The notes under the pieces are model-generated. The model did not search any database and was not told the DNA's origin. It was given only the letters and a program-made list of their open reading frames with translations. A program made the translations under genes and the position numbers. Shown in pieces: positions 10,000 to 53,440 of a stretch of DNA of 64,000 nt (position 1 is its first letter; each line of letters opens with the position of its first letter). The DNA comes from a virus (Duplodnaviria > Caudoviricetes): positions 21,268 to 85,267 of the IMG/VR virus record IMGVR_UViG_2875882051_000001; one strand, written 5' to 3'.

Positions 10000-10030
10000 T
10001 TACTCACCTAACCTTCAAACTATGTTTCTT

Positions 10031-10732
10031 TTATAGCGCTGATTCTTCCAAAAACAAATCTGTATCTTCTATAAATCCTTTATGAACTAATACATTTCTC
10101 ACTTCATATCTCAGAGTGTTATATATTTCGCATCCTATAAATTCCTTATCTATTGGCCTTATTTGAGTATTAAACTCACTTTGTAGGCCTTTAAGCCTTT
10201 TGTATAATCTATCTGGCTCATATTGTGATCTATAACTAGATGAATCTCTTATATTTATATCAAAATTTTTATCCTCTAAAAAAATGAAGAACTTTATATT
10301 GTATTTATTCAGGGTGGCAAATTCGTATTTTAGCCTGTTATAATCAGTCTTAAGAACCTTTTCCAGATACTTTTCTCCAAGCAACTCGATTATTTCTTTT
10401 TTTATCTCATTGATATTAGTCTTATTATCTTTTAAATTCATTGCCAACTCATCAATACAAAACTTTCTTTCAATCACTATTTCATCAGTGAAATAAATAT
10501 CCCTTGTTTGTCCCTTAAAGCTTCCTATTGGTAACATACATGAATAATCTCCATAGTCAAGTTTTTGTGTCTTAAAAGGCTTTTTCCTCTTATTTAACCA
10601 TTGAATTACATGCTGATTTGCTTGCTCTCTTGTATCTACTAATACAACCATTTTATCCAATAATTCTTTTATTTCTTTTTCTGTAAACTTATATCTCATT
10701 AGCAGCCCTCCTATGCTATTTTCTTTACACAT
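10031..10732 (-). CDS. ERCC4-domain nuclease
   Basis: VDTREQ, LDYGDYS, IERK motifs. Confidence 0.85.
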   Translation of the reverse strand: MCKENSIGGLLMRYKFTEKEIKELLDKMVVLVDTREQANQHVIQWLNKRKKPFKTQKLDYGDYSCMLPIGSFKGQTRDIYFTDEIVIERKFCIDELAMNLKDNKTNINEIKKEIIELLGEKYLEKVLKTDYNRLKYEFATLNKYNIKFFIFLEDKNFDINIRDSSSYRSQYEPDRLYKRLKGLQSEFNTQIRPIDKEFIGCEIYNTLRYEVRNVLVHKGFIEDTDLFLEESAL

Positions 10733-11418
10733 TTATAATAAAATGCTGTTCTTTTACCTTCCCAATCTACATTTATTGTTTCACCATTGTTATAAACTCT
10801 TACTACCTTACCCGTTCCTTTGATTCCTTTGTATTCAATTTCAACAAGATCATCAATTTCAAATTCTGTGATGTTTGTATGCTTTTTTGTAACTTTATCA
10901 GCCAAATCTGTGATTTCTTTAGTCATTTCTGTAACAAAAAGCTCATTTTCGTGATATTTAGGCTTTTGTTCATATTCAATGACCCATCCTTTATAATTTA
11001 TAACAACCGTTTTTTCTCCAGGTATTATGATGTTGGAATCACCTTTACGTTTAATGTATTGTGTCACCTTCATATCATTTAATTTTTTAAGCTGTAGATC
11101 ATTGAGTTCTTTATCTTTATTGACGAATAGTATTTCATCAGCTGGCATTAAACCAACATTTGCGCCTAAATCAAATTCATGCACACCTTGTCCATCAAAA
11201 TACTTTGTCTTATCTTCTAATTCAACAAGTAATGCTCCTGAAACAGTTTTTATGATTCTATTACAGCTCTCTTTATAAAGGTTTATTATCTTCTGGAAGT
11301 GATCTTCCTTCGTCTCTTGTTTATCAACTATAACTTTTTCTTTAGGCTTGATAATAGGTTCTTGAATTGGCATATTAAATAAATCAATTTGCCCTTCTAA
11401 CACAATTATTTTTTTCAA
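10711..11418 (-). CDS. Hypothetical phage protein
   Basis: 235-aa ORF with EGQIDLF N-terminus common in Firmicute phages. Confidence 0.7.
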   Translation of the reverse strand: MKKIIVLEGQIDLFNMPIQEPIIKPKEKVIVDKQETKEDHFQKIINLYKESCNRIIKTVSGALLVELEDKTKYFDGQGVHEFDLGANVGLMPADEILFVNKDKELNDLQLKKLNDMKVTQYIKRKGDSNIIIPGEKTVVINYKGWVIEYEQKPKYHENELFVTEMTKEITDLADKVTKKHTNITEFEIDDLVEIEYKGIKGTGKVVRVYNNGETINVDWEGKRTAFYYKCVKKIA

Positions 11419-11498
11419 ATTATCTCACCTTCTTTTTCACTTGATTTTCATATGATAATGAAGCTTTATAATTATAGTGTTATTTACCATATTATTAG

Positions 11499-12506
11499 TT
11501 ACACAACCAATCTTCTATATTCATTTTTAAGGTTTTCTTGAGATAGTTGCGCATATATTTGAGTTGTACTTGGGGTAGTATGTCCAAGAATGCCCTGCAC
11601 ACCTTCAATTCTCATTCCTGAATTTAATAACCTAGTTGCTTGGGTACGTCTAAATTTATGGCAATGTACCCTTTCACCTACTCCAGCTCTATCCTTTATC
11701 TTTGCTATTATTAATTGTAATGCTCTTACTTTTATATGATTATGTGAACCTCTCTCTGATATAAATAAGTATTCTGATTCTCCTTCTCTTGATTTTAAAT
11801 AGCCCTGCATGTGTAACTTAGCTCTTGTAGAAAAGAAAACTATTCTCTCCTTACTTCCTTTTCCAAATACTTTTATACTTCTCTCCTGCCAATTTATATC
11901 TTTTAATTTGATATTATCTAGTTCCGATATTCTGCACGCAGTACTGTCTAAAAGTTCAAATAGAGCTTTTTCTCTTTCAGTTATACACGCTTCTCTTAAC
12001 CTCTCCAAATTTTCTGGTTGATAAGGTTGTAATATCACACGTGGTACTTTAGTTTGTTTCAATTTAAATGCAGGATTTTTAATTATATATTCTTCTGCTT
12101 GCAACCATCCGAAAAAGCCTTTAAGCATTGTTATATATCCGTTAACTGTGGTAGCTTGTTTTTCTTTTCCCATAAAGGCCAAGAACATTCTCAAATCCAT
12201 AGTAGATATAGTAGAACATGGTTTTGTAAAAAATCGCTCTAATTTATTTAGAAATAATCTATAATTATCTAATGTCTTTTGGCTTAAACCTTCTAACTTT
12301 TTACAAGCTAAATATATAGCTGATTTTTCTTCTATATCGCTTGCCACTAGATCAGTACATTTCGATGAAACTTCATAATCATATAAAGTTTCATCAATTG
12401 TCTTTTTAACCTCTAATTGCAAACTCAAATTTTGTTCTAAAACTGGTAATAACAAAGTTAATTTTCCTAACAATCTTATACTGGCTTCTTCATTTAGGTT
12501 GCTCAT
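11499..12506 (-). CDS. XerD-like tyrosine recombinase (not the att integrase)
   Basis: Intact R-K-HxxR-H-Y: TACRISEL, GKGSKER, HKFRR, LGH, TQIY. Confidence 0.92.
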   Translation of the reverse strand: MSNLNEEASIRLLGKLTLLLPVLEQNLSLQLEVKKTIDETLYDYEVSSKCTDLVASDIEEKSAIYLACKKLEGLSQKTLDNYRLFLNKLERFFTKPCSTISTMDLRMFLAFMGKEKQATTVNGYITMLKGFFGWLQAEEYIIKNPAFKLKQTKVPRVILQPYQPENLERLREACITEREKALFELLDSTACRISELDNIKLKDINWQERSIKVFGKGSKERIVFFSTRAKLHMQGYLKSREGESEYLFISERGSHNHIKVRALQLIIAKIKDRAGVGERVHCHKFRRTQATRLLNSGMRIEGVQGILGHTTPSTTQIYAQLSQENLKNEYRRLVV

Positions 12507-12554
12507 ATTATCAAATCCTTTCTTTAGTTTTTTGTAATCTTAATAAAATCATCT

Positions 12555-12583
12555 GAATACTTGTTTTAAAATTGTACATAATA
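12555..12583 (+). promoter_or_regulatory. SigmaG-type promoter, copy 1 (GAATA-N17-CATAATA)
   Basis: Matches the forespore sigmaG consensus GHATR-N17/18-CATWHTA. Confidence 0.55.
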
Positions 12584-12589
12584 TAATTA

Positions 12590-13170
12590 GTTGTTGATTA
12601 TATTATTATTTATAGAATCCATTATGTGCCCTTTAATTAGGGCATATTTTGCGTTTAATTTTAGCATTGTGAATTAAATTATTTGAATACTTATTTTAAA
12701 ATTGTACATAATATAATTGACATTAGTTATGTTATTGTTTATAGAATCCATTAATATTACTATTTATAGAAATCCATTTTTGACTCCTTAATTGGAGTCT
12801 TTTTATATAAATAATTATAGTTGTTAGAATTATTTGTACTTATCCTTCATATAATGAAAGGAAACCTCTTGATTATTATTTTTTATCTTATAGTTACTCT
12901 CTTTTTGTAGATCTTTATACTTTTGTCCATTCACTTTTGAGCTCCTTAAATTTAAGGAGCTTTTATTATTCTTATCATGAATAATTTCATAAAATACTCA
13001 TAAGCTAAGGATGTCTTCATAATCAGATCAGTACTCCATTTTCAATCCATTTAATGTGGGAATATGATATTTTAATTACGTATTATTTAAGATATATTAA
13101 CGTATAATATAAATACCCCACATATATTAATTATCACATACATATACGCCCCTTTATTGGGGCATTTTTT
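12590..13170 (+). ncRNA. Candidate array of short non-coding transcripts, each ending in a hairpin (~12627, 12782, 12940, 13148)
   Basis: No long ORF; repeated TTTATAGAATCCAT; four hairpins followed by T-rich runs. Confidence 0.4.
12685..12713 (+). promoter_or_regulatory. SigmaG-type promoter, copy 2 (GAATA-N17-CATAATA)
   Basis: Near-identical duplicate 130 bp downstream of copy 1. Confidence 0.55.
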
Positions 13171-13195
13171 GTACTCATTTTCTACAGATTGAACA

Positions 13196-13387
13196 TTACT
13201 TATATATTATTGGTTCATTATCTTTCTTAGGATATTGTTGCAATATAATAGACTTCACATAACTGTAATTTATATGTCTATTTACATATTGCATATGGTC
13301 CACGTTGTTTTTTATAGTATAAGTTGTTTTACTCCCATCATTGCATTCTACAAATAACTTTTTCATAACCTTATTCCTTTTCCTCAT
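13196..13387 (-). CDS. Hypothetical protein
   Basis: ORF track; compact cassette region. Confidence 0.65.
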   Translation of the reverse strand: MRKRNKVMKKLFVECNDGSKTTYTIKNNVDHMQYVNRHINYSYVKSIILQQYPKKDNEPIIYK

Positions 13388-13646
13388 TTTTATTAATTTC
13401 TTCTAGATCTGTACCTTCAAACTCAACTTCTCCACTTTCGTCCTTATCAAATTCAAGTATTTTCACATTGTTATCGCTTAAATATCCCTCAATATCATCT
13501 GGATGCATACCGTCTCTTTCCAAAACATCTAACGCATACTCTACTTCAACATCTGAGTCAGCTTCAACTGTTAAAGTATGTCTGTAAACTACTTTTTCTT
13601 CTAATTCGATTTTAAATTTCATATTTCCCCACCCTTTCAAATTCAA
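13371..13646 (-). CDS. Hypothetical acidic protein
   Basis: ORF track; true start probably MKFKIE. Confidence 0.65.
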   Translation of the reverse strand: MNLKGWGNMKFKIELEEKVVYRHTLTVEADSDVEVEYALDVLERDGMHPDDIEGYLSDNNVKILEFDKDESGEVEFEGTDLEEINKNEEKE

Positions 13647-14268
13647 TTACCCATACCCAAGGATTTTCATGCCACATATATTTGACTTGAGATTTATTTA
13701 GAGTGCTATTCCATAAATCTTCAAAAGCTGATATATATTCACTTGCAGTAAATGAGTCAGTAATTTCAAAATCTAGCTTTATTCCTTCCTTTTTACATTC
13801 ACCTGCTTCAATCATTTTTAATCTTTCAGGATAAATCTTTTTTATTTTTAGAAATATCCTTGCTGCTTCTTTCGGCATAAATAATGACGGCTGCCACTTT
13901 TCTTGATCTGCAAATTTATAGAATTTATTAAATCTCTCTTTTGTAAAAGATATACAATCATTAACCTCACTATCTGCCTTATATTTAAAAGCTAGTGTAT
14001 TAACTCCTCTTGAATGCGCCAACCATGTTTCTCTAACATAAAGTATGTCTCCAATTTCAAACTTGGGTTTGCACCAATTAATAGCACTGTATATTGTTCC
14101 AGCAACTGCATTAGATCTATATCCAAATTTGTAATATTCGCCTTCATGTTCTAGTAGTTCTCTATTCCCAACATTCTTTATAATTCTTCTCGTGGTTGTT
14201 TTTCTTCCTTCAAGAATTGCCTTAACCATATCTGTATTAAATAAAATTGGTTTTTCCAATATTCTCAC
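13612..14268 (-). CDS. ASCH/PUA-like phage protein
   Basis: PILFNTDMVKAILEGRKTTTRR, GDILYVRETW, WQPSLFMPK, NPWVWVIEF. Confidence 0.8.
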   Translation of the reverse strand: MRILEKPILFNTDMVKAILEGRKTTTRRIIKNVGNRELLEHEGEYYKFGYRSNAVAGTIYSAINWCKPKFEIGDILYVRETWLAHSRGVNTLAFKYKADSEVNDCISFTKERFNKFYKFADQEKWQPSLFMPKEAARIFLKIKKIYPERLKMIEAGECKKEGIKLDFEITDSFTASEYISAFEDLWNSTLNKSQVKYMWHENPWVWVIEFERVGKYEI

Positions 14269-14284
14269 CTCAATTTATTATGTT

Positions 14285-14367
14285 GAGGGGAATAATCCCC
14301 TCTTAATTTGCAGTAACCTTAACATTAGCAATTGTAATCCCTGCTGCTAACACTCCTAGTCCTGCAA
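14285..14367 (-). ncRNA. Structured intergenic RNA-like element, homologous to 55946-56035
   Basis: Shared ~60-nt sequence with nested stems TTGCAG/CTGCAA and TTAGCA/TGCTAA plus a downstream hairpin. Confidence 0.5.
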
Positions 14368-14375
14368 GAACTCAC

Positions 14376-14801
14376 TTACCCTCTGTTCTTATTTATATCC
14401 ATGAAATTCATTTGAGGATTTATTAGTGGTTGCACTACATATTTTCCATTTATATCATCCCATACAACTTCTTTATTCTCGTCATAGCAACCTTTTGAAT
14501 TATATTGCTTCTTTAAAGTTGATGTTATCTTGTGTTCAAAAGTAGGTTTTTTATATTCATATTTATCATTTATTATATTCCCGTAATCATCTGTTGCAGG
14601 TATTTCCTTATAAGCATCTCTTATTTTTAAATCCAATTTTAAAGATATTTCCCCACTTGCAAATTCACCATTATATACACTTTTTATAACTCTTTGTATT
14701 TCCTCATTTAAATCAGTTAACATTGCATTAAATACAGGACTATCAATATCTATACTTAATACTCTCTTACTTAAATCCACTAATTCACTTGTTTTACCCA
14801 T
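14376..14801 (-). CDS. Hypothetical phage protein
   Basis: 141-aa ORF. Confidence 0.7.
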   Translation of the reverse strand: MGKTSELVDLSKRVLSIDIDSPVFNAMLTDLNEEIQRVIKSVYNGEFASGEISLKLDLKIRDAYKEIPATDDYGNIINDKYEYKKPTFEHKITSTLKKQYNSKGCYDENKEVVWDDINGKYVVQPLINPQMNFMDINKNRG

Positions 14802-15196
14802 TATCTTATTACCTCCAATTCAAATTCGACTCTTTCTAATTCTTCAGTAAATACTTTCTTAACAATCAATTCTGTGATCTGGCTATCGTCCTTATAGGCA
14901 ATTTTATTTAAACTATCCAAAATAACCTTAGCTACATTATCAATATCAGGTTTCTTCTGTGGACGCTCTATCCCCGCCCTTATCGCTTCTAACCTTTTCT
15001 TTGAATAACTCTTAGGTATTTTGTAGTAAGCTATAATTGTTGCCTTTATAGAACCTTCTAAATACCTTCTATCCTGCTGCTGATAACAAATTCTTACCCA
15101 ATTTTCATAAGTCACTGTATCTCCAGGAGTTGTTGCATGTCCATTAAAAAATCTAGGCCGTCCTTTACCTTTTATTGTTCCTTCAACTACTACCAT
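14801..15196 (-). CDS. rusA: RusA-family Holliday junction resolvase
   Basis: GKGRPRF, KKPDIDNVAKVILDSLN, YKDDSQI. Confidence 0.9.
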   Translation of the reverse strand: MVVVEGTIKGKGRPRFFNGHATTPGDTVTYENWVRICYQQQDRRYLEGSIKATIIAYYKIPKSYSKKRLEAIRAGIERPQKKPDIDNVAKVILDSLNKIAYKDDSQITELIVKKVFTEELERVEFELEVIR

Positions 15197-15207
15197 TTAT
15201 TTCTCCT

Positions 15208-16521
15208 TTACCTTAAACAATCTATATTTGCGATCTTTTGGAGCTTATCCAAGTAATAGAATTTAAGTGTTCCAACTGCTCCATCTCTTTGCTTCGCTAT
15301 TATCCATTCAATAATATTTCTGTCTTCTGTTTCTTTGTTGTAATATTCATCACGATACAAGAACATTATCAAGTCTGCATCTTGTTCAATATTCCCAGAT
15401 TCTCTTAAATCCGCCAATGTTGGTCTCTTATCTGCCCTCTCTTCAACTTTTCTAGATAATTGTGATAATACGATTACTGTTACTTCTAATTCTTTAGCCA
15501 TCATCTTTAATTGTCTTGTAACTTCACCAATATCTGACGATCTATTTCCAGTGTTAGGTATGTCCATTAACGTTAAGTGATCTACAATTACCACATCTAA
15601 ACCATGAGTTTGTTTTACTGCTTTAGTCTTAGCTTTTATAGTTAATGTGTTTTGGTAGCTGCTGCAATCTGTAAATATTCCATTTCTCTTAGATAATTTG
15701 TTAGCTGCCATAAGTATTCTTTCAAACTCTTCTGCATTAAGTTTTCCTGTTTTTAATTTCTGTGCTTCAACATTTGAATTGAAAGCCAATCTCCTATTTC
15801 CCAATGCTGTTTCTACCATTTCCATTTCAAATACAAGCACATTATTACCGTTTTTCGCTAGTCCGTCAGCTATGTTTAAAGCAGTAACTGTTTTTCCCAT
15901 TGATGGACGAGCACCGATTACAAATAAGTCTCCTTTATTCATTCCATTTGTTGCTCTATCAAAGTCATGAAATCCTGTTTTCATGCCTGGAATATCTCCA
16001 CCATTAGCATATCTTTCTTCTATCTTTGATATTGTGGCATTAAGTAACTGCGTATCATTTAGTATTTGGCTTTTGTCTTCTGTTTGGCTTAATTCATTTG
16101 ACATTTTACTAATTGAAACATCTGGTTTAATTTTATCGTCATACAATGCATTCATAGCTGAATTTAATGATTTTATCGCCTTTCTTCTGAAGGACTTATC
16201 TTTTATAATGTCCACGTATTGTTTTACATTTAATTTAAACCCACCTGTCATTAGTTCTGTGAGGTATGAAACCCCTCCGACGTATACTAGACTGTCTTTT
16301 CCTAAAACCTCTATAATGGGCGTTATTCCTATTTCTTTCCCGTCTGCAAATAATGCACACATTGCGTTAAATATTAATTGATGGCTTGATCTATAAAAAT
16401 CATTTGTTTTCAACTCATTTACTGCTTGTACTATTATCTTAGGGTTATAAAATATACCTGATAAGAGTTCTTGTTCAGCTCTTATATTTTGCGGTAGTAT
16501 TTGTAACTGTTCTGTATCCAT
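15208..16521 (-). CDS. dnaB: DnaB-like replicative helicase
   Basis: GARPSMGKT, VIVDHL, LSQLSR, DLRESGNIEQDAD. Confidence 0.95.
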   Translation of the reverse strand: MDTEQLQILPQNIRAEQELLSGIFYNPKIIVQAVNELKTNDFYRSSHQLIFNAMCALFADGKEIGITPIIEVLGKDSLVYVGGVSYLTELMTGGFKLNVKQYVDIIKDKSFRRKAIKSLNSAMNALYDDKIKPDVSISKMSNELSQTEDKSQILNDTQLLNATISKIEERYANGGDIPGMKTGFHDFDRATNGMNKGDLFVIGARPSMGKTVTALNIADGLAKNGNNVLVFEMEMVETALGNRRLAFNSNVEAQKLKTGKLNAEEFERILMAANKLSKRNGIFTDCSSYQNTLTIKAKTKAVKQTHGLDVVIVDHLTLMDIPNTGNRSSDIGEVTRQLKMMAKELEVTVIVLSQLSRKVEERADKRPTLADLRESGNIEQDADLIMFLYRDEYYNKETEDRNIIEWIIAKQRDGAVGTLKFYYLDKLQKIANIDCLR

Positions 16522-19201: not shown

Positions 19202-19381
19202 CTATCTTGGAATACTTTGGTCGGTTTCCTTGATAGCTTTTTTGTTTTTACTGCCACATTGTCCATAGTCATCAGTTGCAATAATAAATTCAGTAATAAC
19301 AATTTTAGGTTCATCCTTAATGCAGACATAATCACCTTCGCCTATATATGTGCATTCATCACAATCTTCACATTTTTTCAT
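19202..19381 (-). CDS. Small Cys-rich protein (59 aa, MKKCEDCDECTYIGEGDYVC...), missed by the ORF track
   Basis: Manual translation; ATGA overlap with the upstream stop. Confidence 0.65.
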   Translation of the reverse strand: MKKCEDCDECTYIGEGDYVCIKDEPKIVITEFIIATDDYGQCGSKNKKAIKETDQSIPR

Positions 19382-19851
19382 AGCCTAGACCTCATTTCTA
19401 CAACAATCAATTCATCCAGTTGCTGACTTATTTTAATAGTTGTGTCAGACTGTGGTCCATTTACTGAAATACTAATATGCATCCTTTCCCTTAGTTCATC
19501 GATAGCTTGTTCAATTAATGATTTGCTTAAATCACAAGCTTTGAACTTAACCATAATTCCTTCCCTTTTGACATCTTCTAGCTCCTCAATTTCCAATGTT
19601 TCAGCTCTTCTGTAATAAGGTCCATTATTTGCTTTTATTGATTTTACCTGTACACCTTGCGCCTCTAATCTTTGCTTTAAATCCAATGCACTTGTAATAT
19701 CCTCTTTTTCAATTTTAGTGAGTAATGCATCAACTTCTTTTTCATTTAAGTTTGCTTCAATATCAATGAAGTTTAATCTGTTTACTGTCTCATCAACGTG
19801 TAATCTGTATTTTGGCATTTTATAATTCCTCCTCAACCTATGAATTTTCAA
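19378..19851 (-). CDS. Hypothetical N-domain fused in frame to a Spo0E-like aspartyl-phosphate phosphatase domain (19378-19554)
   Basis: IEQAIDELRERM...IKISQQLDELIV with the SQxLD signature; internal RBS before ATG at 19554. Confidence 0.7.
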   Translation of the reverse strand: MKIHRLRRNYKMPKYRLHVDETVNRLNFIDIEANLNEKEVDALLTKIEKEDITSALDLKQRLEAQGVQVKSIKANNGPYYRRAETLEIEELEDVKREGIMVKFKACDLSKSLIEQAIDELRERMHISISVNGPQSDTTIKISQQLDELIVVEMRSRL

Positions 19852-20240: not shown

Positions 20241-21323
20241 TTACTTGCCTCCTTTAAAATAGTTCTGTATCTTAATTAAATTTTGGATAGCTGAATTAAT
20301 ATCTTGTAGCTCTATTTCTACAATATCTGGAGTATTGGCTATTGCTCCCCATGCCATTAATGCCTCTATATCTGTACTTAATAATGCAACTTTACTAATT
20401 GCATCACGATATTTTTTAGAATGCTTTATACAATCATTAAATTGATCCATTGTTAGGTTATTGAAGTCTTCAATTCCAAAAATATGAGCTTCTTTTGGTT
20501 TCCTGAATTTATCTAATACAACTGCATTTTCTGGAAGGTTCTTTTGAATTTCTTCTAACTTCTTCTTTTCTTCATTCTCTTGCTGTTCTTTTTCCAACTG
20601 CTCCTGGTACTCTTTTTCATATTCAGCATTCTTTTTGTCTGCCTCTATAGCTGACTTAGTAAGAACATAAGCACTATTAATTGTTATGTCTCCCTTTTTC
20701 ACCTGCTGCTTAATTTCTTCTGGAGCTTTTTCTTCGATAACTTCAACCTTATGAATTGTATCCTCTGAAACTCCTGCTATTTTTGCTATTTCTTTTCTAG
20801 TATTTATTGGAGTTATTTCTTTTTCTTTAAGGTTTGATGATTTCAGCAAACCTTTTTCAAAGTTTTCGTCACTCATTTTTAAATTTTCTTCATTATTCGT
20901 TTTTGATGGTTTCATCAAAATGGTATTTTGATGAAGGTTAGACAATGTTGACATACCTTTTTCAGGTCTACCTTCTGATAATTTTTGATTTTCCTTAGCT
21001 CTAGCTTCTATTACTGGCTTAAACTTCAGTGCTATTTGTGCTAACTCATATTTAGTTAAATTCCTTCTATTCTTTTGATTCATCCAAATCCATTCCATAG
21101 CCTCGAGCCTGTCCTTAAATTCCATTTCAACTATATCGAATTGAATATTATTTCTTGTACATATCTCATGTCTGTGATGACCATCTATTAAAATGTTCTT
21201 CCATACAGTTAGTGAATTTATGCAACCATTTTTAATTATGTCTTTTTCAAGCTCTTCTTTTTGTTCCTCCGATAATGGAGGTAGTAAGTCTTTAAACTCA
21301 TTGTCAATAATTAAACCATTCAT
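20241..21323 (-). CDS. ParB/Srx N-terminal-domain protein
   Basis: LLPPLSEEQ...LIDGHHRHEIC...NQKNRRNL; later HTH IAKIAGVSEDTIHK. Confidence 0.75.
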   Translation of the reverse strand: MNGLIIDNEFKDLLPPLSEEQKEELEKDIIKNGCINSLTVWKNILIDGHHRHEICTRNNIQFDIVEMEFKDRLEAMEWIWMNQKNRRNLTKYELAQIALKFKPVIEARAKENQKLSEGRPEKGMSTLSNLHQNTILMKPSKTNNEENLKMSDENFEKGLLKSSNLKEKEITPINTRKEIAKIAGVSEDTIHKVEVIEEKAPEEIKQQVKKGDITINSAYVLTKSAIEADKKNAEYEKEYQEQLEKEQQENEEKKKLEEIQKNLPENAVVLDKFRKPKEAHIFGIEDFNNLTMDQFNDCIKHSKKYRDAISKVALLSTDIEALMAWGAIANTPDIVEIELQDINSAIQNLIKIQNYFKGGK

Positions 21324-52432: not shown

Positions 52433-53440
52433 TTACATGACTAATTTTCTATATTCATTTCTTAAATTCTCTTGAGACAACTGTGCATATATTTGAGTTG
52501 TTGATGGAGTAGTATGTCCCAAAATCCCTTGAACTCCTTCTATTCTCATACCACTATTTAGTAATATTGTAGCTCTAGTTCTTCTAAATTTATGGCAATG
52601 TACTCTTTCATTTACACCAGATCTCTTCTTGATTTTAGATAGAATCAATTGTAGTGCTCTAACTTTAATATGTTGGTGCATACCTTTATCTGATATAAAA
52701 AGCCATTCTGATTCTCCAACCCTTGAACTTATATACTCCTGCATGTGCAATTTAGCTTTTGTAGAAAAGTAAACTATCCTTTCTTTACTTCCTTTTCCAA
52801 AGACCTTTATACTTCGTTCTTGCCAGTTTATATCTTCCAATTTAATATTATCTAACTCTGATATTCTGCATGCAGTGCTATCTAAAATCTCAAATAAACA
52901 TTTTTCCTTTTCTGTCCTGCAAGCTTCTCTAAGTTTTTCTAAATTATCTGCTTTATATGGTTGTAATATTACACGTGGCACTTTAGTTTGCTTCAACTTA
53001 AAAGCTGGATTTTTAAATATATATTCTTCACTTTGCAGCCATCCGAAGAAACCTTTAAGCATTGTTATATATCCATTAACTGTAGTAGCTTGTTTCCCTT
53101 TTCCCATAAGAGCTAGGAACATACGCAAATCCATTGTCTCTATAGTGGAACATGGTTTTGTGAAAAATTGATCTAGTTTATTTAAGAATAATCTATAATT
53201 ATCTAATGTCTTTAGGCTTAAACCTTCTAGTTTTTTGCAAGCTAGGTATATAGTGGCCTTTTCTTCTATGTCACTTGTAATTAGATCCGTGCATTTTGAT
53301 TGTACTTCATAGTCGTAAAGTGTTTCATCAATTATCTTCTTAACTTCTAGCTGCAAACTTAAATTTTGTTCTAGTATTGGTAATAACAATGTTAATTTGC
53401 CTAATAATTTTATACTGGCTTCTTCATTTAGGTTGCTCAT
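52433..53440 (-). CDS. XerD-like tyrosine recombinase, closely similar to 11499-12506
   Basis: Same length (335 aa), intact catalytic residues, shared upstream 27 bp. Confidence 0.92.
   Translation of the reverse strand: MSNLNEEASIKLLGKLTLLLPILEQNLSLQLEVKKIIDETLYDYEVQSKCTDLITSDIEEKATIYLACKKLEGLSLKTLDNYRLFLNKLDQFFTKPCSTIETMDLRMFLALMGKGKQATTVNGYITMLKGFFGWLQSEEYIFKNPAFKLKQTKVPRVILQPYKADNLEKLREACRTEKEKCLFEILDSTACRISELDNIKLEDINWQERSIKVFGKGSKERIVYFSTKAKLHMQEYISSRVGESEWLFISDKGMHQHIKVRALQLILSKIKKRSGVNERVHCHKFRRTRATILLNSGMRIEGVQGILGHTTPSTTQIYAQLSQENLRNEYRKLVM

Follow-up and report, generated by a model that had tools for sequence, protein, structure and literature searches.

Genomic setting of the gap

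The provirus record is 85,267 bp long with 31% G+C, and the window, by which we mean the whole 64,000-nucleotide stretch of DNA that was analyzed (positions 21,268 to 85,267 of the record), contains two Clostridium-type prophages. Within the first of these lies a gap at 12507-13195 in which no ORF is longer than 34 aa. The genes surrounding it are all on the minus strand and run leftward. Left of the recombinase gene that borders the gap are an ERCC4 nuclease gene and the gene for a sigma-70 region-4 (late) regulator, which places the gap between the replication genes and the late-regulator side. The flanks and the sequence between them are:

11499 to 12506, minus strand: gene for a 335-aa Xer/integron-type tyrosine recombinase (Pfam PF00589, 122 bits), transcribed away from unit 1
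12536 to 13176, no strand assigned: the whole cassette, a probable host-derived mosaic inserted with the recombinase leader on one side and the end of the upstream early gene on the other; homology stops near 13176
13196 to 13387, minus strand: the final small early gene, phrog_32497

The second prophage has a paralogous recombinase gene at 52433-53440, also for a product of 335 aa and, as in the first prophage, in the middle of the prophage genome, but the two leaders have only about 27 nt in common (12507-12535 in the first phage), and where the first phage has 690 bp the second has a single hairpin and no array. The DNA just upstream of the recombinase gene also differs among nearly all of 34 related phage loci (L001-L034), as would be expected of a cassette-capture site.

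Organization of the array

The original prediction had described two near-identical promoters 130 bp apart, four hairpins and six occurrences of TCCAT in this gap, and all three descriptions were borne out. The promoter repeats belong to units at 12529-12588 and 12659-12718 that are 85% identical over 60 nt, and the 33-nt promoter-like stretch has exactly two copies in the window (12555 and 12685) as against none in 100 shuffles. The hairpins (12624-12647, 12782-12799, 12939-12962 and 13148-13163) are terminator-like on the plus strand, where four intrinsic terminators were seen in the gap and 0.1 expected; a search for terminators on the minus strand of the gap found none. The six TCCAT sites (12618, 12747, 12773, 12926, 13035 and 13046) are all on the plus strand and all read TCCATT, with zero TCCAT on the minus strand of the gap. 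Six or more in the gap has a P of 0.003 in a first-order Markov simulation, and TCCATT occurs 1.0 times per 689 nt window-wide. The units, as we delimit them, are:

12555 to 12587, plus strand: predicted promoter of unit 1, with a -35 box GAATA (12555-12559), a 17-nt spacer, a -10 box CATAATA (12577-12583) and an overlapping TATAAT (12582-12587)
12593 to 12655, plus strand: predicted RNA of unit 1, about 60 nt, with a seed (12609-12622) and a terminator (12624-12647) plus U tail
12685 to 12717, plus strand: predicted promoter of unit 2, with boxes identical to those of unit 1
12723 to 12806, plus strand: predicted RNA of unit 2, about 80 nt, with tandem seeds (12735-12751 and 12763-12777) and a terminator (12782-12799)
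12827 to 12970, plus strand: unit 3 (module B), with GAATT-N16-CATATAAT (12827-12855), a predicted RNA of about 100 nt and a 10-bp terminator (12939-12962)
13018 to 13171, plus strand: units 4/5 (module C), with a -10 box CATAATCA (13018-13025), an internal GTATT-N18-TATAATA (13080-13109) and a terminator (13148-13163)

Units 1 and 2 share one plan, in which GAATA-N17-CATAATA is followed by an AU-rich stretch of about 30-55 nt with UCCAUU at its end and then by a terminator; in unit 2 the seed is doubled. In module C the CATAATCA box lies about 7 nt ahead of the module's conserved start, and the internal box, which reads GyATT-N17/18-yATrrTA in the alignment, precedes an almost invariant 3' part of about 55 nt and the last terminator. 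When the units were folded, the 5' parts were open and the terminators stable, with the seeds outside stable hairpins; the fold of the unit 1 RNA, an open 5' part plus the terminator, has a z of -3.7. A longer hairpin at 13057-13124 in module C was rejected because homologues do not keep it. A search of 10000-16000 with the Rfam covariance models gave 0 matches at E <= 1. A ToxI-like type III toxin-antitoxin system does not fit either: the 25-nt repeats number only two, both within unit 2, and the downstream side has no plus-strand gene.

Promoter class

The B. subtilis sigmaG consensus is GHATR, a spacer of 17-18 nt and CATXHTA, and GAATA-N17-CATAATA fits it in two exact copies. The claim that these are sigmaG promoters stands as far as the fit of the boxes goes, but the label was over-stated, since sigmaE and sigmaK fit equally well and the SASP genes examined in the closest host genome differ. 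The same bases can be read as ATA-N17-CATAATAT for sigmaE and as AC-N16-CATAATATA for sigmaK, which makes sigmaG indistinguishable from the other two. The corresponding C. difficile patterns are ATA-N17-CATA for sigmaE and AC-N16-CATAnnnTA for sigmaK, and the mother-cell sigma -10 boxes of that organism are CATATTAT and CATATAAT (PMC3789822). Across the 15 aligned copies of the unit 1/2 type the AC varies (C, T or A) and GAATA is almost always retained. For calibration, the ten SASP genes examined in the Clostridium genome G008, the closest host genome, have a promoter that differs from the unit boxes, and nothing could be read from the sequences upstream of spoVAC and spoIVA. Nine of these ten SASP genes (L156-L165) have a conserved upstream motif with a GGTTAA[T/G]ATATT-type -10 region, which may help to define forespore promoters in that species.

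In G008 the exact promoter pattern was found 18 times, compared with 10 times for the control, and seven copies of one subtype lie 35-80 nt upstream of paralogous genes for signal-peptide proteins of about 105 aa. The recurrence before these secreted-protein paralogues indicates that the motif is a real promoter class that is reused. Judged by its sequence it is a genuine class with the CATA hallmark of sporulation sigma factors, for which sigmaG is not established. The 85-kb record holds four occurrences of this promoter type, three of them within the gap; the fourth, at window position 1575, is in apparent minus-strand coding sequence, looks like chance and was discarded.

The secreted family of about 105 aa has no Pfam or NCBIfam model. 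It comprises at least seven paralogues in G008 (L181-L188, G008:C1, 3.48-4.37 Mb), is present also at L036:344-682, L067:1690-2007 and L058:1101-1430, and is often flanked by small-RNA-like units. The core of the unit 5 promoter (GTATTATTTAAGATATATTA type) precedes a gene in two other Clostridium species as well (L060 in G114 and L062 in G029), the product of which has an N-terminus that we take to resemble RecD2-type helicases. This occurrence suggests that the unit 5 promoter is older and more widespread than the RNA body.

Readings of the minus strand

ATGGA minigenes had been proposed on the minus strand of the gap, several with a Shine-Dalgarno-like sequence buried in the adjacent hairpin. 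The readings are as listed except that the minigene at 12751 is 25 aa long, and AAGGAG does lie within a terminator arm, 6-10 nt upstream of two of the minus-strand ATG codons. Peptides of this kind, or hydrophobic peptides of 24-29 aa encoded on the plus strand, could make the array a type I toxin-antitoxin system or a set of translated minigenes, a reading that we consider very improbable. The minus-strand peptides are only 2-25 aa long and polar, and their ends differ between copies; the plus-strand ORFs have TTG starts without a Shine-Dalgarno sequence; and the indels among copies are not multiples of three. Small ORFs are not conserved across the 15 copies of the unit 1/2 type. In module B the ATG of the hydrophobic ORF is ATT in eight of the nine homologues that cover it, and an 18-aa peptide (MKGNLL...) of that module was rejected as not conserved. 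The toxin-antitoxin-like array is not supported, no peptide being conserved.

The minus strand would also carry six A-U-GGA motifs if it were transcribed as a CsrA sponge, and the other strand of the gap has none. AUGGA is, however, common on the coding-sense strand of the window (TCCAT occurs 217 times on the plus strand), the promoters and terminators of the homologues are on the plus strand, and AUGGA lies beside the hairpins, not in their loops. The CsrA-binding RNA that had been suggested found no support in these comparisons, and it is hardly to be credited.

Occurrence in other genomes and host origin

Strong matches to the gap were found in four of the 130 Clostridium species genomes (G008, G009, G026 and G122), all of about 6 Mb, and each module of the gap recurs in them separately and in several loci. 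The homologues of a neighboring protein are labelled Clostridium beijerinckii or Clostridium sp. MF28 by their sources. R1, a covariance model trained on 15 copies of the unit 1/2 type, found 1-5 copies in each of the four genomes and none in the other 126 genomes of the genus; its match at 13083-13171, in module C, was weak (E = 0.49). The stretch 12828-13174 is 91% identical to a chromosomal locus of G008 (L056), with module C at 98%. Arrays that lie downstream of a DUF6143 gene in three genomes match 12749-13169 at 80% identity and are syntenic with the whole block of unit, module B and module C (L057, L065 and L066). Module B also stands alone between minus-strand genes (L072, L073, L075 and L076), and the 3' half of module C is found by itself at L067 and L068. 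Because the modules recur separately in four host-group genomes and the identity to L056 is high, the gap appears to be a host-derived mosaic, best read not as phage-specific DNA but as DNA acquired from, or exchanged with, the chromosome of a host of the Clostridium beijerinckii group.

Among phages, the GenBank phage collection gave no DNA match to the gap, and only two (L001 and L006) of the 34 IMG/VR loci with the same recombinase have such a unit. The L001 phage has one unit, 92% identical, and is the sole BLAST match to part of the gap among the 34 loci. The L006 phage has a unit with a different body sequence, detected by R1, at the equivalent place and in the equivalent orientation and followed by a 116-aa moron gene. 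This moron gene recurs in G009, on an island of the chromosome where small genes are interspersed with three units, which suggests that the site next to the recombinase collects material from host sporulation islands. The exact promoter pattern had no match in the GTDB species genomes; elsewhere it matched one IMG/VR entry, the L001 phage, and one metagenome contig of 1.7 kb (L036), where two units follow a small secreted-protein gene in surroundings that are not those of a phage. The seed patterns were found on no other contig in IMG/VR. The protein encoded by the moron gene (116-118 aa; L006:2778-3128, minus strand, and L089, G009:C37:1-10000) has an acidic middle and an arginine-rich tail, RRPRRRFRRF, and may be spore-associated.

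Conservation of the units

Three alignments were made, of module C (A1, 11 copies), of module B (A2, 11 copies) and of the unit 1/2 type (A3, 15 copies). The best-kept columns of A3 are the -35 box, the -10 box and the single-stranded seed. Its terminator stem has 13 double-change cells, compared with 7.1 in shuffles, and a covariation score of 0.327, compared with 0.219 in shuffles; this score was reached by 1 of 500 shuffles, and slid controls gave 0.09-0.19. In A2 the -10 region and the first 20 transcribed nt are invariant across the 11 copies, and the module B terminator shows compensatory U-A/C-G swaps.

This pattern bears on whether the array does anything in the phage. It could instead be a patchwork of host intergenic DNA, made up of the promoters and terminators that flank the secreted-protein paralogues, which recombined into the variable cassette site and is carried along without function. 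The modules do often flank the family of about 105 aa, which has the same promoter type, the unit family is small and confined to four species genomes, the insertion site is variable among relatives, and some chromosomal copies are partly decayed (L074b is without a -10 box, and L036b and L091 have broken terminators). Both phage units, however, keep perfect boxes, seeds and terminators, the unit was duplicated in the phage and has three seeds there, and the stems vary by compensatory substitution. In addition, tblastn detected no remnant of the 105-aa family in the gap, and the complementarity to one start codon described below is unique. We consider an inert passenger unlikely.

Independence of the units from neighboring genes

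Most of the chromosomal loci (L036, L056, L057, L065, L066, L070 and L072-L076) have a convergent gene after the unit or array. In L067 and L183 a same-strand gene follows, with its own promoter between the terminator of the unit and the start of the gene. From the convergent neighbors and the separate promoters of the same-strand genes, we favor stand-alone small transcription units over leaders of a downstream gene. Three features of a trans-acting small-RNA gene are present, namely a promoter of its own, at the level of sequence; an intrinsic terminator kept by selection, as indicated by the terminator excess and the covariation; and, in 5 of the 15 family members, an accessible seed complementary to the start region of a candidate target, described below.

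Stand-alone units could also act in cis. All of them face the phage genes. Firing against the leftward early transcript at the junction that precedes the genes for the recombinase, ERCC4 nuclease and sigma-like late regulator, they could act as an antisense brake, in which converging transcription and RNA duplex formation would keep read-through out of the late region, for instance in sporulating cells. The position of the gap between the replication genes and the late-regulator side suits this reading; read-through RNA would be fully complementary to the units, as the gap has no minus-strand terminator; and a search of the 85-kb phage record for partners of the unit RNAs gave no strong ones other than their own antisense strands. 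On the other hand, the same modules are found in chromosomes with nothing transcribed through them, the sister prophage and 31 of the 34 related phage loci are without a unit at this junction, and the four plus-strand terminators limit how far an antisense RNA could reach. A brake of this kind is compatible with trans-acting RNAs and the two are not mutually exclusive, but we think it improbable.

Sequencing runs with the same species label contain the prophage, and in RNA-seq assemblies, which show neither the strand nor the ends of transcripts, the gap is covered at a low depth, about half that of the recombinase. One contig of 577 nt, derived from a paralogous copy, starts precisely at 12593. 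We did not accept this as a transcription start site, since the upstream promoter is a repeat, assembly graphs break at repeats, and the contig start may be such a break. In raw reads from a prophage-free strain, coverage of the chromosomal locus of the L056 type is low and the strand signal is not consistent.

A candidate target at a Spo0E-like start codon

The consensus anti-seed was searched with up to two mismatches in the four host-group genomes. Among the matches examined, a single one is at a real start with AAGGAG 8 nt upstream, and it belongs to a 54-aa gene that is conserved in all four genomes and scores 25.8 bits with the Pfam SpoOE-like model (cut-off 23). A search with the seed has thus provided a concrete candidate target start, in a Spo0E-like gene. 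All 17 nt of the unit 2 seed at 12735-12751 are perfectly complementary to the beginning of this gene, namely its start codon and first five codons. The complementary 17-mer occurs once in each of the four genomes, at the Spo0E-like start, although a match of an AU-rich 17-mer is less improbable here than it would be in a balanced genome; allowing one mismatch adds only a unit copy and one other site.

Other contiguous pairings with the target are 14 nt for the unit 1 seed, 14 for L092, 11 for L083a and 13 for the L036 metagenome units. Five of the 15 family members have a contiguous complement of at least 13 nt, beginning at base 1 or 2 of the start codon, compared with a maximum of 12 nt among 241 background start regions, of which 0-1.7% reach 10. 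The remaining ten members have 11 nt or less (most of them 8 or less), including L001, L070 and L065, the only full copy in G008; with seeds diverged in these ten, the target is not a constant of the whole family. Cofolding gave a ddG of -13 to -15 kcal/mol, compared with -5.8 +/- 2.4 to 3.0 for shuffled targets, and both duplex and cofold energies surpass those of background or shuffled targets by about 3 sd.

The pairing spans positions +1 to +17, which fall within the ribosome footprint, and occlusion of translation would be its expected effect. It counts against this target that conservation in the seed peaks in the AU-only stretch 5' of AUAGAAUCC, whereas the best pairing with this mRNA lies in another part. 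The 5' end of the target is identical in all four genomes and so offers no variation with which changes in the seed could be matched. The host genomes have 9-13 Spo0E-like paralogues each. When units 3-5 were compared with these paralogues, the duplex and k-mer screens gave nothing above background, and an anti-seed search with unit 5 returned only its own copies and one site inside an ORF.

Proposed function of the array

Among the alternatives first put forward, small RNAs that block translation starts gained support, from conserved sRNA-like units and from a concrete target start in the host. Our best explanation, which we find quite possible but hold tentatively, is that the gap holds small-RNA genes of host origin, arrayed as a moron, with units 1 and 2 aimed at the start codon of a Spo0E-type phosphatase. 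The cassette would hold four or five small-RNA genes, independent of one another and opposite in strand to the phage genes, each with a CATA-type promoter of the sporulation-sigma kind, an unstructured AU-rich body ending in UCCAUU and an intrinsic terminator. The three seed copies of units 1 and 2 would pair with the AUG and first codons of the 54-aa Spo0E-family mRNA and occlude ribosome binding. The protein is a presumed phosphatase of Spo0A~P and, as such, a presumed brake on sporulation. The analysis shows how the units are laid out, their homology to host modules, the way they are conserved, the covariation in the terminator and the uniqueness of the complementarity. That the units are transcribed, when and by which sigma factor, that they repress the target and that the phage gains from it is what we infer: when the units fire, the lysogen would make less of the brake, commitment to sporulation would be favored, and the prophage would be carried into the spore. 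If the small-RNA reading holds, the minus-strand 'minigenes' are then the mirror image of the anti-start-codon seeds and not genes.

The same phage has an early gene that touches on the same pathway:

19378 to 19851, minus strand: phage early gene whose product has a Spo0E-like domain at its C-terminus (PF09388, 40.3 bits against a cut-off of 23)

Its product is 157 aa long, and the gene adjoins RecT and PDDEXK recombination genes. It gives the array-bearing phage a possible second handle on the host phosphorelay, at the level of protein; no complementarity was found between the small RNAs of the array and this gene. A wider proposal, which we put forward as doubtful, is that the temperate phage rewires sporulation with a duplicated, sporulation-timed sRNA that silences a chromosomal Spo0E paralogue by covering its start codon, while its early operon supplies a Spo0E-domain protein of the phage's own, and that the host clade has a previously unrecognized family of sRNAs in its sporulation regulon which phages sample as cassettes. 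Were this so, the phage and not the cell would set both the brake and the accelerator of entry into the spore.

Phages of spore-formers interfere with sporulation through proteins, including sigma factors, Rap-Phr and arbitrium-linked systems. Our literature searches turned up no regulatory RNA that is carried by a phage and directed at the Spo0A phosphorelay. Should the pairing prove real, it would offer a testable handle on how prophages secure their passage into spores and on the separate control of each of the many Spo0E paralogues in solventogenic clostridia; since Spo0A drives both sporulation and solvents, such control bears on solvent production. The analysis also defines a small clade-specific sRNA family and a promoter class that it has in common with an expanded secreted-protein family.

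Comparison with known systems

CsfG is a sigmaF/sigmaG-dependent sporulation sRNA of Bacillaceae, encoded by a single-copy chromosomal gene. It resembles the predicted RNAs of the units in being short, in its forespore-type promoter and in ending at a terminator of its own, and its sequence is unrelated to the array. DicF and AsxR/AgvB are trans-acting sRNAs of enterobacterial prophages. A further prophage-encoded trans-acting sRNA is known from EHEC (PMC13502914). These resemble the proposed array in being moron-type small-RNA genes that reprogram host mRNAs, but they belong to Gram-negative hosts, use sigma70 promoters and Hfq, and none is known to concern sporulation; the array, unlike them, has several units copied from host paralogues. 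The antisense RNAs of type I toxin-antitoxin systems in clostridial and Bacillus prophages are likewise short, terminated, intergenic in a prophage and antisense to a start region. The array differs from them in having no toxin ORF and in that the complementary start is elsewhere in the host genome, in trans and not in cis.

The closest parallels to the proposed function are base-pairing sRNAs that act on translation initiation, namely SpoX and SpoY of Clostridioides difficile (PMC10267692) and SR1 of Bacillus subtilis, which acts on kinA (PMC8501984). As is proposed for the array, they are small base-pairing RNAs that set the level of the Spo0A phosphorelay or of Spo0A. They are chromosomal, belong to the vegetative or transition phase and target spo0A or kinA, whereas the array is phage-borne, has a sporulation-like promoter of the CATA type, has a Spo0E-type phosphatase as its candidate target and shows no sequence similarity to them. 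In C. beijerinckii, 336 intergenic sRNA candidates have been predicted computationally (PMC3025663) by the same logic of an intergenic promoter plus a rho-independent terminator, with no family, seed, target or phage link assigned; the chromosomal homologues of the units may be among these 336.
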